Part shown: positions 447-5,523 of the stretch, one piece after another
How the letters are laid out: each line of letters begins with the position of its first letter
Numbering within the stretch: position 1 is the stretch's first letter
Virus record (IMG/VR): IMGVR_UViG_2695420565_000012
DNA from: a virus
Taxonomy: Duplodnaviria > Heunggongvirae > Uroviricota > Caudoviricetes
DNA: 5,523 nt
Reading direction: 5' to 3' (one strand)
The notes under the pieces: model-generated
Databases searched by the model: none
The model's input: only the letters and a program-made list of their open reading frames with translations
What the model was told of the DNA's origin: nothing
Made by a program: the position numbers and the translations under genes

Positions 447-1064
447 TCAATTATCTTCCAGGCCGGATGCTATCAACGAAAGCCTCTCAAAAAACGCTGT
501 AGCAGCCTTGTCCAAAGTTGAATAAGTACTGTATTCTCCGTGTTCGGGACCAACCACTACCCATGGTCGTCTTTTTGGGATTCGGGACTTCTCAGAAATC
601 ACTGTTCCAGATATACCAATATCAATTGTTACACCTGTTATTATTTTCTCTTCATCTCTTTCCCTGAACTCAATTGCCATAAATGCCGTTTTTTTTCGTT
701 TCCCGTTTTTAAAAAAATCAAATAAAGCAAAGCGATGCTCATTAAAATCAACACCCCATCGTCCTTCAGGATAAAGGGCATGAAAGTTGTCATTTACGCT
801 CTGCATCGTCTCATAAGCTTTAACTTTTAAATCTCCATAGTGCATAGATACCGCGCAGGAGTCACTGGGTAACTGTATTTTCCCAAGATTGAAAACCTTT
901 ACTGCTCCAGAACTATGGCATCTTGCCCGCAATTTATCCCCATTTATACTAATCGGAGAAATATTCCTTAATGTTCCGGGCTGGCTCCCTCCTAAGTAAA
1001 CGACTGTTAAAGATTGCTTATTTTCAATTGCATCAACTAATACATGCTCTACATTTTTATCCAT
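447..1064 (-). CDS. Hypothetical protein, 205 aa, AT-rich orphan/moron gene immediately downstream of Q; N-terminal region reminiscent of a WYL/Sm-like beta-barrel
   Basis: ORF-track entry 447..1091. I prefer the internal ATG at 1064..1062 because it has a strong SD (GGGAGG at 1076..1071, 5-nt spacer), whereas the ATG at 1091 has none. Stop TGA at 449..447. Hand count of 601-700 gives 33% G+C versus 50% for 4301-4400 in the Dam gene. N-terminal pattern LTVVYLGGSQPGTLRNISPISINGDKLRARCHSSGAVKVFNLGKI loosely fits the WYL-domain spacing, but this is unverified. Confidence 0.7.
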   Translation of the reverse strand: MDKNVEHVLVDAIENKQSLTVVYLGGSQPGTLRNISPISINGDKLRARCHSSGAVKVFNLGKIQLPSDSCAVSMHYGDLKVKAYETMQSVNDNFHALYPEGRWGVDFNEHRFALFDFFKNGKRKKTAFMAIEFRERDEEKIITGVTIDIGISGTVISEKSRIPKRRPWVVVGPEHGEYSTYSTLDKAATAFFERLSLIASGLEDN

Positions 1065-1139
1065 AATAACCTCCCAATGAACAGGTATCATCAGGAGGTT
1101 ATAATAAAATATGATTATTTACTTTGATTGAATTTATTA

Positions 1140-1511
1140 CTATATGTAACAATCAATTTCTAAAGATGCCCCCAACATTGCCAGACAACCGTCAATAAAC
1201 CCTTCAGCTTTCTGCAGTCTGATAACAACCTGATTAAGTGATATCCCCAGTTTTACCCCCAATACCCGTAATGTAACCCCATACACATAATACATTTCCA
1301 GTAATTCGTATTGATACGGTTCCTTTTTCTTAAGAACTGTCATCGCAGAGCTAATGATCAGGCCATCGTCATCGCTACATTGCGGGCGGGATTTTACTTT
1401 CGAAGGAATTAATCCCTTAAAACCTGCAGCAACAGATGACCATTCCACATCCTCGTGATTATTTGCCACCCATGCCCCCCAACGTTCAAGAACCATTTGA
1501 ATATCACGCAT
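1140..1511 (-). CDS. Late-gene antiterminator Q, phage 82 / QuuD-like family
   Basis: Translation [45 protein letters not shown]...[11 protein letters not shown] closely matches my recollection of E. coli DLP12 QuuD and phage 82 Q ([22 protein letters not shown]...SKVKSRPQC...RLQKAEG). Start taken at ATG 1511..1509 with SD GGAGAAA upstream, rather than the TTG at 1526 used by the ORF track. Stop TAG at 1142..1140. Confidence 0.85.
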   Translation of the reverse strand: [123 protein letters not shown]

Positions 1512-1528
1512 CAACTTTCTCCACAAAA

Positions 1529-2524
1529 TCAGGCCAGCACGCCTATTGCCAGCGCACGATCGATAAAACGAAATATCAGCTCCAGCTGGGAGCCATACTT
1601 CTCTTCAAATGCCACGGTATCCGCATGCAGCTCGTCGTGATGCTTTCTGCACAAAGGCAGCACGAAGAGGTCATGCGCTTTTGTACCCATTCCCCCCTGA
1701 CCGTGGCCTATCAGGTGGTGGGGATCATCAGCAGGCTTTCCACAACATGCACACGGCTGCGTCTTAACCCAGCGCGTGTACTTTTCGTTAACCCAGCGGC
1801 GACGTTTTGGGCGTAACATAAAAGACTCCGGCGACTCCGGATCCACTTTCAGCGCCAGCACCTTTTTCGCTTTATTCTGGATGATGCTGGTGGCCGGAAC
1901 CGAAGGCACAAGGTCACTCTCCCGGGTGACAGACGGCACAACAGGCTTCGGTAATCTCAGTGCCTTACGGGCTGCACTTTCCGGTAAGGCATCCGCCAGA
2001 TCATTACGAACCAGCCACCAGCACAGTTCCGGCATTGTCACAACGTGACTGTCATCAAAACCGAGATCCCGACGCACAACAGACAACACCCAGCGGGCAC
2101 AGTTATCCGTTGCCATTGATTCCAGCCGTTCCGTGAACTGATCGCGCAGCTGGTTATCGCAGTGCCAGCACAGACGGATTGCGCCCGGCGCGTGTCGCAT
2201 TGTGGTCATGTTCTCGCTGTGCCAGTCGGAATGAGGCCACTGGCAACCTTTTTCACGAAGTAACCAGCTTTCAAGACATTCCACGCCACCAGCACGACGG
2301 ATCACTGCCTCATTGCGGAACACGGCCCGAACGGCAGGATCATCCGCCAGCGGTTGTGATGCTGCCGGAACGGCACCACTGGCAAAAGATGAATAACGTT
2401 CCGGCTCAGGCTCCAGCAGGACACGCCCCTGCATAAACAGGGGCATCAGCTCTGAACCGGGTCTGAACAATACGATCCCCATACGCGGGGCAATTTCAGG
2501 GGTCAGTAGTGCTCTCACGGTCAC
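1529..2524 (-). CDS. Prophage protein, DUF968/YdfU-like, with a C-terminal Cys/His motif resembling an HNH-type zinc-binding nuclease fold
   Basis: 331-aa ORF. GTG start at 2524 with GAGG upstream, overlapping the stop of the upstream antirepressor gene (TGAGGTGACCGTG). C-terminus CACCGKPADDPHHLIGHGQGGMGTKAHDLFVLPLCRKHHDELH carries a CxxC...HH...H arrangement. Its position directly upstream of Q matches ydfU-quuQ in the E. coli Qin prophage (from memory). Confidence 0.7.
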   Translation of the reverse strand: MTVRALLTPEIAPRMGIVLFRPGSELMPLFMQGRVLLEPEPERYSSFASGAVPAASQPLADDPAVRAVFRNEAVIRRAGGVECLESWLLREKGCQWPHSDWHSENMTTMRHAPGAIRLCWHCDNQLRDQFTERLESMATDNCARWVLSVVRRDLGFDDSHVVTMPELCWWLVRNDLADALPESAARKALRLPKPVVPSVTRESDLVPSVPATSIIQNKAKKVLALKVDPESPESFMLRPKRRRWVNEKYTRWVKTQPCACCGKPADDPHHLIGHGQGGMGTKAHDLFVLPLCRKHHDELHADTVAFEEKYGSQLELIFRFIDRALAIGVLA

Positions 2525-2525
2525 C

Positions 2526-3341
2526 TCAATGAACGGTATCGAGCAGCTTTAACAGCTCAGGGAATCGGGATTCGAAGAAATGCGGCTGCGTCTCGCGCGG
2601 ATTTGCGGGACTGGTGATGTTCTTGCCGAACATGCAACCTTTCGCTGTCAGCGACCAGAATTTTTTGATGTTGTTAATCGCGGTACGGCTGTATCGTTCG
2701 CGTTGTTCAACGATCCCCAGCTTCGCCATCTGGTGATATGCCTGATTAGCCGTCAGGCGGATACCATACTGCTTCAGCAGTGCACTCAGCGACAGCGTAG
2801 GGCGGCTTGAACCATCTGGCGCATCAGCAGGTGCATCAATGGCATAGATCGGCATAAGTTCAGGAAGACCAGCTACCTTTGATAATTTCTGGTATGCACC
2901 AAGTTTCGAGGAGTTTGACAGATTTAGAGTCTTTGCTGCTGATTCAAGCAGAATGACCCCGGATTTAATTTTGTCGGATGTGGTTTCTTCTGGTGATGAA
3001 TTATGAAGCGCATCAAAAGTACGTATCACTTTTAAGCTGAATGCCGGGCTGATCCACATTGCATATGCATAGACCAGCTCTTTACAGACATACGTCCCAC
3101 CATTGCGCCCCTGAATGGTGATGACAGGAATACTACGGGAATCTCCCGTAGTTTCTTCTTCCAATAATTCCACAAGAGCCTTCGTTTCAGGACGACGCAT
3201 AAACTCGTGAACTTCCAGCGAACGGGAGGAGCGATTCTCACCAGCGGCAAGAAGAGCAGCTTTCTGAAGGTCGTTAAGACAGTAGTTAGATTCGAAGTAC
3301 TGGCGCACAGAAACGCCATCAATTACAAGCAACTGATTCAT
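2526..3341 (-). CDS. Antirepressor-like protein with N-terminal KilA-N domain and ANT-like C-terminal region
   Basis: ORF-track entry 2526..3353 (GTG start). I prefer ATG 3341..3339 (MNQLLVIDGV...) with SD GGAGAA 5 nt upstream. N-terminal VRQYFESNYCLNDLQKAA...GRNGGTYVCKELVYAYAMWISPAFSLKVI fits the KilA-N pattern (G-T-W/Y-V...W-I/L-S-P-x-F). The C-terminal part resembles phage antirepressor C-terminal domains. Confidence 0.8.
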   Translation of the reverse strand: MNQLLVIDGVSVRQYFESNYCLNDLQKAALLAAGENRSSRSLEVHEFMRRPETKALVELLEEETTGDSRSIPVITIQGRNGGTYVCKELVYAYAMWISPAFSLKVIRTFDALHNSSPEETTSDKIKSGVILLESAAKTLNLSNSSKLGAYQKLSKVAGLPELMPIYAIDAPADAPDGSSRPTLSLSALLKQYGIRLTANQAYHQMAKLGIVEQRERYSRTAINNIKKFWSLTAKGCMFGKNITSPANPRETQPHFFESRFPELLKLLDTVH

Positions 3342-3438
3342 TGGTTTCTCCACAAATTTTTATCCACGAGCGGGACTGCACTCCCTTTTCGTTGATGCAG
3401 GATGAACTTACTGCGATTTTTAATAGTTATCAAGGATA

Positions 3439-3458
3439 CACTGTTCATAAATACAGTA
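3439..3458. promoter_or_regulatory. LexA (SOS) box candidate in the rusA-ant intergenic region
   Basis: Plus strand cactgttcataaatacagta has a perfect CTGT-N8-ACAG core with an AT-rich spacer and matches 16 of 20 positions of the consensus TACTGTATATATATACAGTA (counted by hand). It lies about 98 nt upstream of the antirepressor ATG at 3341. Confidence 0.5.
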
Positions 3459-3469
3459 TCTTTAACGAG

Positions 3470-3498
3470 GTAATACCCAAATTTAGGGTGTTGCTCAA
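3470..3498 (-). promoter_or_regulatory. Candidate sigma70 promoter for the antirepressor operon (-35 TTGAGC, 17-nt spacer, -10 TATTAC)
   Basis: Minus strand reads TTGAGC (3498..3493), a 17-nt spacer, then TATTAC (3475..3470). That would put the LexA box at about +5 to +24. An alternative pair, TTGATA-17 nt-TAAGTT, lies just downstream of the box. Prediction by eye only. Confidence 0.25.
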
Positions 3499-3503
3499 TT
3501 CCG

Positions 3504-3899
3504 TTACCGAGTTGCTAATTTGCAACTCGCTTTTTCGTACTTACTGATAGTGATCTCGACCTTCCCCTCCGGGATAACCGGTCCCCACTCCACCAGCATT
3601 CTTTTCACCTGTCTGTCGTCTTCCCACACACCCGCGTGGGTCAGGGCGTCAAACAGCGCCTTGTTATAGTTGTCCAGATCGCGGATCCGGTTATCCGGAG
3701 GAAACAACACGATCTCCACTGAAGCAGGTGCCGACGTTGGTTTCGGCAGACGACGTAACTGCTCAACTATTGCTGCACACGCCGCGCTCTGGAATTTTCG
3801 CCCCGCCGCGCTTATCAGGCTCTTACCAGCAAACGCCCCTTTGTTGGGGTGTCGCCAGTACGTGTTCACGCTGGGCGGAAAAGGCAGTATTAGCTTCAT
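3504..3899 (-). CDS. rusA: Crossover junction endodeoxyribonuclease RusA (Holliday junction resolvase)
   Basis: 131-aa ORF. LPFPPSVNTYWRH and RDLDNYNKALFDALTHAGVWEDDRQV match the RusA N-terminal and catalytic Asp-rich motifs (compare E. coli RusA LPWPPSNNRYYRH...[27 protein letters not shown]). ATG 3899..3897 overlaps the upstream stop as ATGA. Confidence 0.9.
   Translation of the reverse strand: MKLILPFPPSVNTYWRHPNKGAFAGKSLISAAGRKFQSAACAAIVEQLRRLPKPTSAPASVEIVLFPPDNRIRDLDNYNKALFDALTHAGVWEDDRQVKRMLVEWGPVIPEGKVEITISKYEKASCKLATR
3508..3535 (+). terminator. Plus-strand terminator-like hairpin inside the 3' end of rusA
   Basis: cgagttgc (3508-3515), loop taattt, gcaactcg (3522-3529) form an 8-bp stem, followed by cTTTTTcg on the plus strand. 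The minus-strand reading has no U-run. No convincing plus-strand gene lies upstream of it. Confidence 0.3.
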
Positions 3900-4222
3900 A
3901 CTTTCAGGCCCCTCTCATGTAACCAGTGGGCTGCACGCAGCCTGGCGTTTGCCTCACCGGCAAGCAGGGCGCGGATAATCCCGACCGCCTCGCTGTCGTC
4001 GTCCTTCACCGCGGTATGAAGAGTGATACCCCGGGCCACGCCACGCTTTATCGTGATGACACCTTTTTTCTCCAGTGCGCGAAGATGCTCCACCGCTGCA
4101 TTCACCGAACGGTATCCCAGCATGGTTGCCACCTCCTGATTGGTTGGCGGGAAGCCACGTTCTTTCTGATAAGAAATCAGCATATCCAGCACCTGCTGCT
4201 GGCATTGAGTTAATGTCGTCAT
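3896..4222 (-). CDS. LexA-family DNA-binding protein consisting of the LexA N-terminal winged-helix domain only (no S24 peptidase/autocleavage domain)
   Basis: 108 aa. LTQCQQQVLDMLISYQKERGFPPTNQEVATMLGYRSVNAAVEHLRALEKKGVITIKRGVARGITL aligns along its length with the E. coli LexA N-terminus ([65 protein letters not shown]). It is too short to contain the Ala-Gly cleavage site and Ser/Lys dyad domain. SD GGGAG upstream; ATG 4222..4220 overlaps the Dam stop (ATGA). Confidence 0.85.
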   Translation of the reverse strand: MTTLTQCQQQVLDMLISYQKERGFPPTNQEVATMLGYRSVNAAVEHLRALEKKGVITIKRGVARGITLHTAVKDDDSEAVGIIRALLAGEANARLRAAHWLHERGLKV

Positions 4223-4872
4223 GCCGCCATCTCCCTGACCAGTTTTTCCGCCTGCTGGCGAACCTGCGCCAGAAACGCCTCACCACATGCCTCAAGTTCA
4301 TCGCGCCCGATGTAGCTGATTGCCGCTCCCTTCCAGGTCTTGTCGAAAACAGCAATAGCACCAGCGAAGAAAGCACCTGTTGGCACCTGCTTTTCGTCTT
4401 TCGGGATAAACCAGGCTGGCAGTTCAAAACCAATACGCCCGCGAATAAAAGCAATATGATCTGCATCTTCCGGCCACCACACTTCGCTGGTGGCCGCTTT
4501 GATCAGGAAAACATAGCGCCCGCCCTTATCACGCATGGCACTGGCATGTTTCATGATGTAACGCATGCCGGTGATGTATTGCCCCTCATGCTGACTGGCG
4601 CGGCTGTATGGGGGATTACCAAAGGCAGCACCTTTAAGCTCCGCAAGACGTTCTGACCAGTCATGCGCCAGCGCGTTGTCTTCCGCCGTGTAATACGCGG
4701 CACATTTGGCGTTATCACCGTCAGTGAACAGATCCAGAACAAACGGACCAAACAAGGTGTTAATTCCCCAGAAAATGTTGTCCGGCGTGCGCCACTGATC
4801 GCCCACTTCCTTCAGTTCATGGGCTGGTTTGTTCCGCAGTTCTACCAGCGCCTGGCAATATTTATTACTCAT
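4219..4872 (-). CDS. Phage Dam-type DNA N6-adenine methyltransferase
   Basis: Contains FGNPPYSR, the (D/N)PPY catalytic motif of N6-adenine methyltransferases; overall resembles the phage N-6-adenine-methyltransferase family. Start taken at ATG 4872..4870 (MSNKYCQALVELRN...) rather than the GTG at 4917 from the ORF track, because the ATG overlaps the stop of the upstream micro-ORF (TAATG) and follows a GGGGG run. Stop TGA at 4221..4219. Confidence 0.85.
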   Translation of the reverse strand: MSNKYCQALVELRNKPAHELKEVGDQWRTPDNIFWGINTLFGPFVLDLFTDGDNAKCAAYYTAEDNALAHDWSERLAELKGAAFGNPPYSRASQHEGQYITGMRYIMKHASAMRDKGGRYVFLIKAATSEVWWPEDADHIAFIRGRIGFELPAWFIPKDEKQVPTGAFFAGAIAVFDKTWKGAAISYIGRDELEACGEAFLAQVRQQAEKLVREMAA

Positions 4873-4964
4873 TAAGCCCCCACGTAAAAAGCATCCGCAA
4901 TGTCTCCGGAAGTACACCCCGGATGGGCTTCAATGAATTTCTGAACTTCATTCAAAAGACTCAT
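4872..4964 (-). CDS. Possible 30-aa micro-ORF translationally coupled between the upstream ORF and Dam
   Basis: ATG 4964..4962 lies 2 nt after the upstream TGA stop (TGATCATGA). It reads MSLLNEVQKFIEAHPGCTSGDIADAFYVGA, and its TAA stop overlaps the Dam ATG (TAATG). Not in the ORF track (too short). No recognisable family. Confidence 0.3.
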   Translation of the reverse strand: MSLLNEVQKFIEAHPGCTSGDIADAFYVGA

Positions 4965-4966
4965 GA

Positions 4967-5467
4967 TCACCCCCTGAATCCTTCCGGGATCTGGCTGTAG
5001 TCCACGTTGTCGTAACTGGCTTTGAAGTACGGGTCCTCGCGTCTGGCTGCAGATACCGCAGGAACTTCCCAGGATTCTTCGAAATGACGATCCGGACCAA
5101 AGAACGTCGACGCCTGCTTCACGAACTGGGTACCGGTATTTCCAGAGACACGCACCCAGGCGGCATAGCGTTTCACACCGTCGAGCATGGTTTCGGGTGT
5201 CACACCTTCCCTGATTCGGGCTTTCCAGGCTTTAAAAGCGGCGGATTTTGAATTACCACCAGCACGTTTGGGATATTCCTGCCAGGCCTGTTCAAATTCC
5301 GGTGAATATTCCTGTCTGGCAGAACGCGCTGGTGCAGACGCGTCAGCGGATGCGCCAATAGTGTTTTTAGTCTCCGTTGTAATCTCTGTAGTAATCTCTG
5401 TAGTAATCTCTGTATTTGAGGTGTACTGACAATAGCGGACACTACCATTTGTTCTTTTTTTAAGCAG
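4967..5467 (-). CDS. Phage replication-associated protein (conserved phage C-terminal domain, Phg_2220_C-like motif) with N-terminal (TEIT)n repeats; start codon undetermined, possibly frameshifted
   Basis: The frame is open from the stop TAG (5470..5468) to TGA (4969..4967). It reads ...NTEITTEITTEITTETKNTIGASADASAPARSARQEYSPEFEQAWQEYPKRAGGNSKSAAFKAWKARIREGVTPETMLDGVKRYAAWVRVSGNTGTQFVKQASTFFGPDRHFEESWEV... The F-x-x-(F/A)-W-x-x-Y-P-K-R...A-x-K-A-W...F-x-x-x-x-W pattern matches the conserved C-terminal domain of phage replication proteins as I recall it. No ATG/GTG/TTG occurs in this frame upstream of the GTG at 5203, which is the ORF-track start. Confidence 0.5.
   Translation of the reverse strand: MLKKRTNGSVRYCQYTSNTEITTEITTEITTETKNTIGASADASAPARSARQEYSPEFEQAWQEYPKRAGGNSKSAAFKAWKARIREGVTPETMLDGVKRYAAWVRVSGNTGTQFVKQASTFFGPDRHFEESWEVPAVSAARREDPYFKASYDNVDYSQIPEGFRG
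5379..5414. repeat. Perfect 12-bp tandem repeat x3 (gtaatctctgta), preceded by a degenerate copy from about 5371
   Basis: Read directly: 5379-5390, 5391-5402 and 5403-5414 are identical, and 5371-5378 (tctccgtt) is a partial related unit. In the minus-strand frame continuous with the downstream conserved domain it encodes TEIT-TEIT-TEIT. Confidence 0.9.
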
Positions 5468-5523
5468 CTATCTGATGATATTTTTCCCTGAAGGCTGCCG
5501 GGGAGATATTCCCCAGACGAGAG
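5460..5523 (-). CDS. Possible 3' end of an upstream gene entering from the right window edge
   Basis: One minus-strand frame is open from the edge and reads ...SRLGNISPAAFREKYHQIAA before TAA at 5462..5460. A second frame is also open from the edge, so the assignment is uncertain; only about 20 codons are visible. Confidence 0.25.
   Translation of the reverse strand, partial: SRLGNISPAAFREKYHQIAA

Follow-up and report, generated by a model that had tools for sequence, protein, structure and literature searches.

A LexA-type DNA-binding domain with a helical tail in the nin region of lambdoid prophages: a candidate RecA-proof repressor made after induction

What could a lambdoid prophage do with a protein that carries the DNA-binding head of LexA and nothing of its protease? 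The question is raised by a stretch of 5,523 nucleotides (nt) from a tailed-phage record (Caudoviricetes; IMG/VR IMGVR_UViG_2695420565_000012), hereafter the window, which encodes on its minus strand a LexA-like protein of 108 amino acids (aa) between a Dam methylase and a RusA resolvase. A first-pass annotation had proposed that this protein is homologous to the N-terminal winged helix of host LexA and too short to include the autocleavage and dimerisation domain, and that the phage may set its own induction threshold through it. The answer tentatively favoured here, to which we give somewhat less than an even chance, is that of a RecA-proof repressor for operators of the SOS-box type, a LexA surrogate made after induction. 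The gene and its parts are as follows.

3896..4222, minus strand: LexA-like gene, 108 aa, ATG start (Pfam LexA_DNA_bind, phrog_362)
4019..4222, minus strand: LexA-type winged helix-turn-helix, codons 1-68 (AlphaFold, Foldseek to 3JSO)
4073..4111, minus strand: recognition helix RSVNAAVEHLRAL, codons 38-50 (alignments to LexA)
3914..3997, minus strand: amphipathic two-helix hairpin, putative dimerisation module, codons 76-103 (AlphaFold and alignments)

Profile, pairwise and structural comparisons agree on the nature of the protein. Residues 1-65 match the Pfam profile LexA_DNA_bind over its whole length (PF01726, positions 1-65 of 65, E = 2.9e-19), residues 1-91 align by BLASTP with E. coli LexA at 43% identity (E = 1e-21), and the top sequence matches in the PDB are 1LEA and 3JSO, both of the LexA N-terminal domain. 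Foldseek fits the AlphaFold model, whose mean predicted local distance difference test score (pLDDT) is 78.8, to the LexA N-terminal domain in 3JSO with a deviation of 1.4 Å across 68 residues, at 50% sequence identity. The winged helix of the model consists of helices at 6-22, 28-35 and 40-52 and strands at 56-59 and 65-68, and is followed by a short linker (residues 69-75) that was modelled with low confidence and is taken to be flexible. Judged from its sequence, the homology of the protein to LexA is far beyond chance; the first-pass assignment is upheld, the closest matches being to the LexA N-terminal domain and not to an unrelated winged-helix family.

The protein ends at residue 108, and the second half of LexA is missing from it. 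The Pfam search gave no Peptidase_S24 match, the Ser119-Lys156 dyad of the LexA S24 domain is absent, and only positions 1-91 of the 203 in the lexA model TIGR00498 are aligned (70.7 bits, below the cutoff of 110.95), so that of canonical LexA as this model defines it the winged helix is present, while the S24 domain and the conserved Ala84-Gly85 site are lacking. BLASTP does pair the tail motif LLAGEA (Ala88-Gly89) with the LexA cleavage site VAAGEP (Ala84-Gly85). As a functional cleavage site this motif was rejected: the Ala-Gly pair is not conserved, relatives having AN, VG, TR, SG, ER, DD or AC at its position, it falls in a helix or turn in the AlphaFold prediction, and there is no catalytic domain in cis. 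It is treated here as a probable evolutionary relic of a truncated lexA. With neither a catalytic domain nor a conserved cleavage site present, RecA would be unable to remove the protein, which, as far as its residues tell, is a LexA DNA-binding domain only and cannot autocleave, in line with what had been claimed from its length.

In place of the protease domain stands a conserved tail. Its two predicted helices, 76-87 and 93-103 (pLDDT ~88), are both amphipathic, with hydrophobic moments of 1.19 and 1.04. In an alignment of 14 diverse members, Ala97 and Leu101 are invariant and hydrophobic residues are kept at 79/80, 82/83, 86/87 and 100. The same alignment shows Ser39, Lys53 and the Arg64-Gly65-Ile66 of the wing to be invariant, Leu50 to be invariant or nearly so, Gly54 to be nearly invariant, and Asn41 to be present in 13 of the 14. 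The conserved wing and helix residues, together with the hydrophobic pattern of the tail, therefore point to selection for DNA binding as well as for a protein interface. The tail had been called helical-looking in the first pass; found now to be amphipathic and conserved too, it is probably a dimerisation module, which would fit the alternative interface then suggested.

The protein and its tail belong to a family. A HMMER search against 1.84 billion representatives returned 4625 matches at E <= 1e-3, mostly LexA proteins, and among the top ones are proteins of ~105-135 aa that align over their full length, tail included, at 40-52% identity. Both features that define the family PHROG 362 are found in the window protein, namely a full-length profile match (E = 4.2e-59, residues 1-108 versus positions 1-106 of 106) and a nin-region position upstream of RusA; PHROG 362 is annotated as 'transcriptional repressor', and RefSeq uses 'LexA family transcriptional regulator/protein'.

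Some relatives, P0131, P0133, P0148 and P0151 among them, carry two tandem LexA_DNA_bind domains in a single chain of 141-352 aa, and may be single-chain pseudo-dimers.

The surroundings of the gene bear on when its product would be made. Read along its minus strand, the window represents the early-right (nin) region of a lambdoid prophage.

4967-5203 and beyond, minus strand: replication-initiator gene, 3' end (open reading frame (ORF) and profile searches)
4872-4964, minus strand: PerC/YfdN-family remnant of 30 codons, MSLLNEVQKFIEAHPGCTSGDIADAFYVGA
4219..4872, minus strand: Dam N6-adenine methyltransferase (PF05869, E = 6.8e-45; TIGR01712, 254 bits)
3504..3899, minus strand: RusA Holliday-junction resolvase (PF05866)
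3439..3458, minus strand: near-consensus SOS (LexA) box TACTGTATTTATGAACAGTG, in the RusA/KilA-N intergenic region
2526..3341, minus strand: KilA-N protein, 'antirepressor-like', PHROG 129 (PF04383, E = 1.3e-15; phrog_129, E = 3.8e-109)
1529..2524, minus strand: DUF968/HNH-like protein, member of the conserved module (PF06147, E = 1.5e-81)
1140..1526, minus strand: Q late-gene antiterminator, end of the conserved module (PF06530, E = 8.1e-47)
447-1091, minus strand: WYL-like protein (weak WYL-domain match; PHROG 8498)

The profile searches agree with the neighbours first annotated, Dam, RusA and then KilA-N, and correct two of their starts: KilA-N most likely begins at ATG 3341 and not at GTG 3353, as the RefSeq gene length supports, and Dam most likely at ATG 4872 and not at 4917, in agreement with the RefSeq length of 654 nt. 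From the replication gene to RusA, each stop codon overlaps or abuts the following start, the ATG of the LexA-like gene overlapping the Dam stop (ATGA, 4219-4222) and its stop overlapping the RusA ATG (3896-3899), for which reason the LexA-like protein is considered a product of the early-right transcript. No promoter belonging to the gene itself emerged from a sigma-70 scan of 3200-5523. This negative, together with the coupling, indicates that the protein is probably not made in the repressed lysogen. If it is absent there, no threshold can be set before induction and it can only act later; the proposal that the phage sets its own induction threshold is thus unlikely in its literal form, and what may be conceived is a feedback role after induction.

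The gene order around RusA is not peculiar to the window. In a synteny sample made of SfV, S88 and nine diverged lineages, the gene is found just upstream of RusA in every one of ~ten lineages whose proteins are 40-67% identical to that of the window, with stop and start codons overlapping or nearly abutting in most; a ~67-aa small ORF, a gap or, at locus L088, a reverse-strand gene separates the two in a few. A DNA methyltransferase precedes the LexA-like gene directly in most lineages. After RusA there may be a KilA-N gene or, holding its position in distant relatives, a Rha/ANT gene; DUF968 and Q come next. Of what is new about the gene, this LexA-like/RusA/DUF968/Q module stands on the firmest ground. 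Its tight junctions with RusA and the methyltransferase upstream could also speak for a protein that is no transcription regulator at all, and that would serve as a DNA-binding accessory of RusA, of the DUF968/HNH protein or of the methyltransferase, e.g. to direct or modulate the resolution of junctions. Such a function is considered very unlikely: the fold of the LexA N-terminal domain binds operators sequence-specifically, and its recognition helix is conserved within subgroups, gene order in the nin region can reflect inheritance of a module and not physical partnership, RusA is widespread without a LexA-like gene, and loci with Dam abutting RusA exist.

A LexA surrogate acting after induction would work as follows. 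In the lysogen, the gene is probably silent, since the early-right operon to which it is coupled is repressed by cI; in the S88-type prophage, cI is of S24 type. Upon DNA damage, LexA and cI would both be cleaved, the SOS-box promoter ahead of KilA-N, DUF968 and Q would open, and transcription from pR along the early-right/nin transcript, with Dam and RusA, would yield the LexA-like protein, as it would after infection. The hairpin that replaces the S24 protease/dimerisation domain would most likely dimerise the protein, and the dimer would then occupy CTGT-type, SOS-box-like operators lately vacated by host LexA. Being uncleavable, it would restore repression at the box promoter of the phage, and probably also at host SOS genes and at the LexA-controlled antirepressors of co-resident prophages. 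An isolated LexA N-terminal fragment retains weak operator binding, and a non-cleavable LexA(Ind-) blocks the SOS response.

Whether such a dimer would read SOS boxes depends in the first place on its recognition helix. LexA contacts bases through Ser39, Asn41, Ala42, Glu44 and Glu45 (PMC3091678). The helix of the window protein, RSVNAAVEHL, keeps four of these five residues, Ser39, Asn41, Ala42 and Glu45, with Val replacing both Glu44 and Pro40, and a CTGT-like half-site would accordingly look plausible for it on this comparison. Within the E. coli/Citrobacter subgroup, R38-S39-V40-N41 is invariant, and A43, V44 and E45 are at least 90% conserved.

Nonetheless, a number of observations on the helix and on the boxes around the gene speak against the surrogate, while a sister subgroup speaks in part for it. 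Position 44 is never Glu in the 14 members (Val, Ala, Thr, Phe, Tyr or Leu are found), nine of them have Glu at position 45, the remaining ones Gly, Asp, Ile, Thr or Leu, and some lineages carry Tyr in place of Asn41. Since positions 44 and 45 vary, the family is not constrained as a strict LexA mimic would be, and a dimerisation module different from that of LexA may in addition impose a different half-site spacing. Positions 42-45 read, by lineage, AAVE, TIAG, AATD, GAFE, AAAE, TVFI, AAYE, AVAL/AVLL or AAAT, a diversity that would suit phage-specific operators. It therefore favours a transcription factor whose specificity has drifted from the SOS box and whose winged helix recognises an operator of the phage itself, activating or repressing a lytic promoter, e.g. 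in the nin/Q/late region. There is a precedent in gp6 of the Bacillus tectivirus GIL01 (PMC6182141), a LexA homologue in truncated form that recognises a different, non-SOS palindrome overlapping -35 and switches on the late promoter P3; the constant position of the gene, shortly before RusA, DUF968 and Q throughout the lineages sampled, would agree with a factor of this type. A drift of this kind is possible, if doubtful, given that the subgroup of the window protein keeps Ser39, Asn41, Ala42 and Glu45, that identity to the LexA N-terminal domain reaches 50%, and that the protein has no BLASTP similarity to gp6.

The SOS box of the window brings less support to the surrogate than its position would suggest. 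The perfect CTGT-N8-ACAG at 3441-3456 is the only one in the window, and its 20-mer matches the consensus at 16 of 20 positions. It lies 440 nt 3' of the LexA-like stop, in the 162-nt gap between RusA and KilA-N (measured to ATG 3341), so that KilA-N is the first gene after it, followed by DUF968 and Q; the first-pass placement of a near-consensus box ~440 bp from the gene, ahead of an antirepressor-like gene, is thereby confirmed. The exact 20-mer TACTGTATTTATGAACAGTG is found in 98 stretches of viral contigs. Among the loci with at least 800 nt of sequence upstream of it, the LexA-like gene stands at the same distance in 89, is displaced by an insertion in 1 and is absent in 6, and these last keep the box, RusA and KilA-N, with Dam abutting RusA in five of them. 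RusA is 93-100% identical at all box loci (96-100% except at one). As all copies of the box ride on the same RusA allele, its association with the gene amounts to physical linkage and provides no independent evidence; the box was consequently discarded as a sign of functional pairing, and the link between the two that had been proposed is reduced to linkage.

Seen from the side of the gene, the association is also loose. This box is present at 16 of the 80 loci with a near-identical LexA-like gene, and 23 of the 80 have no perfect box in the DNA examined. Three diverged lineages of identical synteny (L084/L085, L088 and L191) have no CTGT-N8-ACAG in 10-12 kb, relatives devoid of any SOS box share the synteny at 44-52% identity, and the RusA/KilA-N gap of SfV measures only 19 nt. 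Because the box is rare among gene loci and absent in diverged relatives, the pairing of gene and box is not a conserved feature. Moreover, repression of the antirepressor-like gene by the phage protein would have little effect, since transcripts started at pR would in any case read through the genes that the box controls. The many gene loci without an SOS box would be more easily understood with an operator of the phage's own; no alternative candidate came, however, from a palindrome search of the window, where the notable intergenic palindrome is the SOS box itself and the others lie inside coding regions. A 13-nt palindrome at 4929-4955 was rejected as a candidate operator, as it falls within the 30-codon PerC/YfdN remnant.

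A closer tie to the SOS response is found in a sister subgroup, that of proteins related to P0137 (40-45% identical to the window protein; P0137 matches phrog_362 with E = 3.4e-38). At 30 of its 37 loci, at least one perfect CTGT-N8-ACAG, usually near-consensus, lies within 1.5 kb upstream, which corresponds to 0.72 boxes per kb upstream, the remainder of these loci having 0.043 per kb. The boxes comprise 22 distinct 20-mers with variable spacers and fixed CTGT and ACAG, therefore bearing the signature of a maintained binding site, and at L089 and L190 the box comes after a terminator-like hairpin and beside a promoter-like -35/-10. The operon that follows consists of DinI or RecA, a phrog_1813 small ORF, the LexA-like gene, in some lineages phrog_1212, and then RusA, DUF968 and Q, its first gene encoding DinI (PF06183, E = 1.1e-23), RecA (PF00154, E = 1.1e-130; L218/L219) or a RecA_C fragment (L192). 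At L089/L090, the one subgroup locus with its immunity region read, the repressor is a short helix-turn-helix protein without an S24 domain. Through this operon the LexA-like family is genuinely tied to SOS circuitry, and its repeated embedding in the phage SOS interface, beside proteins that act on RecA, supports an SOS-related role. The boxes themselves say little about what the phage protein binds: subgroup members with helices of the types NAVALHL and NTVFIHL, without Glu45, and YAAYEHL, without Asn41, still stand behind canonical boxes. Since these are canonical despite the altered helices, they evidently serve host LexA and give no indication of what the phage protein itself recognises.

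The partners of the gene in this subgroup would also be in keeping with an opposite direction of regulation. DinI binds the RecA filament, some operons have a full RecA, and the small ORF occupies the position of the Gifsy antirepressor; all of these plausibly reinforce SOS or induction, and since the LexA/antirepressor induction of Gifsy is reversible upon LexA replenishment (PMC3121763), a lock-in factor would be useful to such phages. As in the dominant-negative option of the first pass, the LexA-like protein might thus compete with host LexA at SOS operators, or prevent their re-repression, without repressing efficiently itself, and in this way the SOS-controlled antirepressor and Q operon would stay on and the phage would be committed to lysis. 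We regard such a pro-induction, anti-LexA factor as quite unlikely, as a dimeric winged-helix protein at or over a promoter would normally repress, and as the protein has no LexA C-terminal domain with which to form heterodimers.

Coming back to the RecA-proof surrogate, its presence beside phage DinI or RecA admits a broader formulation, in which lambdoid prophages of Stx (Shiga toxin), SfV-like and Gifsy-like types would carry an SOS take-over kit with the surrogate as effector. Following induction, the effector would shut down the SOS regulon of the host again, together with LexA-gated antirepressors belonging to rival prophages, or, alternatively, lock the SOS-gated antirepressor and Q operon of the phage itself. 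The kit as a whole is judged unlikely. Finally, the literature does not assist the surrogate either: full-text searches gave no functional study of the gene, only catalogue mentions such as pham 237 (pfam01726) in 15 Stx phages (PMC8136144). The phage phi1720a-02, which carries the LexA-like gene, is the subject of a 'bully phage' interference paper, in which the effect is credited to Cro.

Other SOS boxes and genes were recorded at the loci of this family. The S24-type cI gene contains, within its coding part and ~211 nt from its start, a near-consensus box of type TACTGTATGTAAAAACAGTA (L002 21525-21544 in the E. coli S88 prophage, L083 836-855, L188 1865-1884); this box is recurrent among the 80 loci, and its position is the same across lineages whose LexA-like proteins are only 48-67% identical. 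A near-perfect box, atgaaaaaTACTGTAAAAATAAACAGTG, overlaps the start codon of a DNA methyltransferase gene downstream of Q (L004 13912-13940, L190 7739-7758, also L196 and L222), and is common to E. coli phages and to a lineage with only 43% LexA-like identity. A poor SOS-like box, GGCTGTAAGTAACCACAGAG, occurs at ~33 of the 80 loci upstream of the DUF4222/Rha pair in the early-right operon, as at L002 20291-20310, between ymfL and DUF4222/Rha, with no obvious promoter near. A gene for a full-length RecA, an ORF with only the RecA C-terminal domain, or a dinI homologue comes directly after one SOS box or several in tandem (L218 4598-5683, L219, L192 4310-4597, L213 5383-5634); together with the phrog_1813 ORF and the LexA-like gene that follow, it makes up a 'mini SOS regulon' carried by the phage. 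Just upstream of the SOS-box promoter of the LexA-like operon, reverse-oriented morons are found (L089 3863-5232, L192 2833-3801), containing a bacterial RNase A-like toxin with a CdiI-like immunity gene, and an Abi_2 gene.

Within the window, the PerC/YfdN remnant overlaps by its start and stop codons with the replication gene and Dam, the full gene having ~160 aa in most relatives. The replication-initiator gene contains, at 5371-5414, 3.7 tandem copies of the 12-nt unit ACAGAGATTACT (minus strand), which resemble ori iterons, cf. lambda O. On the downstream side of Q, the adjoining WYL-like protein (205-214 aa, PHROG 8498) has an 18-nt inverted repeat (1063-1105, 83% complementary, 7-nt spacer) across its start and ribosome-binding site. 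A role of the LexA-like gene in anti-phage defence was considered and dismissed, the PADLOC match being marginal and irrelevant.

The 327-nt gene is widespread. Of 5426 complete E. coli genomes, 2233 (41%) contain it, in up to 4 copies and nearly always on the chromosome; it is always flanked by 'phage N-6-adenine-methyltransferase' and 'RusA', and it also occurs in the Shigella serotype-converting phages SfV (orf42) and SfII, in mEp460, cdtI and phi1720a-02, in many Stx2-converting phages and in other lambdoid phages. Scanning of genome contigs with the family alignment found only 4 loci, and a scan of viral contigs with P0189 found none. The gene is therefore common and already annotated by its domain; its architecture, a LexA head with a helical hairpin, and its genomic logic are not described for gp6 or LexA. 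If the protein binds SOS boxes, induced prophages carry an uncleavable LexA of their own, and models would change for the shut-off of the SOS response, for the cross-talk of co-resident prophages through LexA-gated antirepressors of Gifsy or 186 type, and for the production of Stx triggered by antibiotics. If its specificity has moved to a new operator, the protein represents a second, independent recruitment of the LexA head by phages as a transcription factor, after GIL01 gp6. Should the take-over kit be real, the gene would be a determinant of induction kinetics, prophage competition and Shiga-toxin release.

Several known systems can be set beside this gene. The BlaI/MecI, MntR and Rrf2 repressors also combine an N-terminal winged helix with C-terminal helices, and appear as weak whole-chain Foldseek matches (ranks 13-48); the analogy is one of design only, with no sequence homology, a root-mean-square deviation of 5-13 Å and a much shorter tail in the window protein.

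In the Gifsy prophages of Salmonella, a LexA-controlled dinI-antirepressor-irsA operon has been experimentally established (PMC3121763). It shares with the P0137 subgroup the order of terminator, SOS box, dinI, small ORF, third gene, junction resolvase and Q, as well as short, non-cleavable repressors of DicA/RacR type. It differs in that irsA (STM1020), the third Gifsy gene, resembles DUF1367/NinB and not LexA, that its resolvase is NinG and not RusA, and that the LexA-like gene of the window lies upstream of the SOS box and not behind it. The possibility that the LexA-like gene is the IrsA of the Gifsy dinI-gfoA-irsA operon was rejected, as STM1020, being DUF1367/NinB-like, has no significant similarity to P0137; no similarity was detected between the phrog_1813 small ORF and GftA.

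GIL01 gp6 is the only characterised phage-encoded truncated LexA homologue found in the literature. Like the window protein, it is a phage-encoded LexA-type DNA-binding domain only, and as an early gene it belongs to a phage in which the switch to lysis is connected with host LexA. It differs in belonging to a tectivirus of Gram-positive hosts and in having 66 aa without the C-terminal hairpin. BLASTP between the two gave no alignment at E <= 100, by which membership of a gp6 family is ruled out on sequence, and because of its length, its missing tail and this lack of alignment, gp6 is taken as an analogue and not as a relative.

With E. coli LexA itself, the window protein has in common the winged-helix fold, Ser39, Asn41, Ala42, Glu45 and the Arg-Gly-Ile of the wing; it differs in being phage-encoded, in the hairpin that follows the linker, in the lack of S24, and in having Val for both Glu44 and Pro40. 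A functional likeness would also exist with LexA(Ind-) mutants (e.g. lexA3) and with the LexA 1-84 fragment, which likewise place a LexA-type DNA-binding domain beyond removal by activated RecA (RecA*), and by analogy with which a blocked or shortened SOS response would be expected. Those, however, are host mutants or cleavage products, with the native dimer interface or none, whereas the phage gene is natural, has evolved separately and brings a tail of its own.

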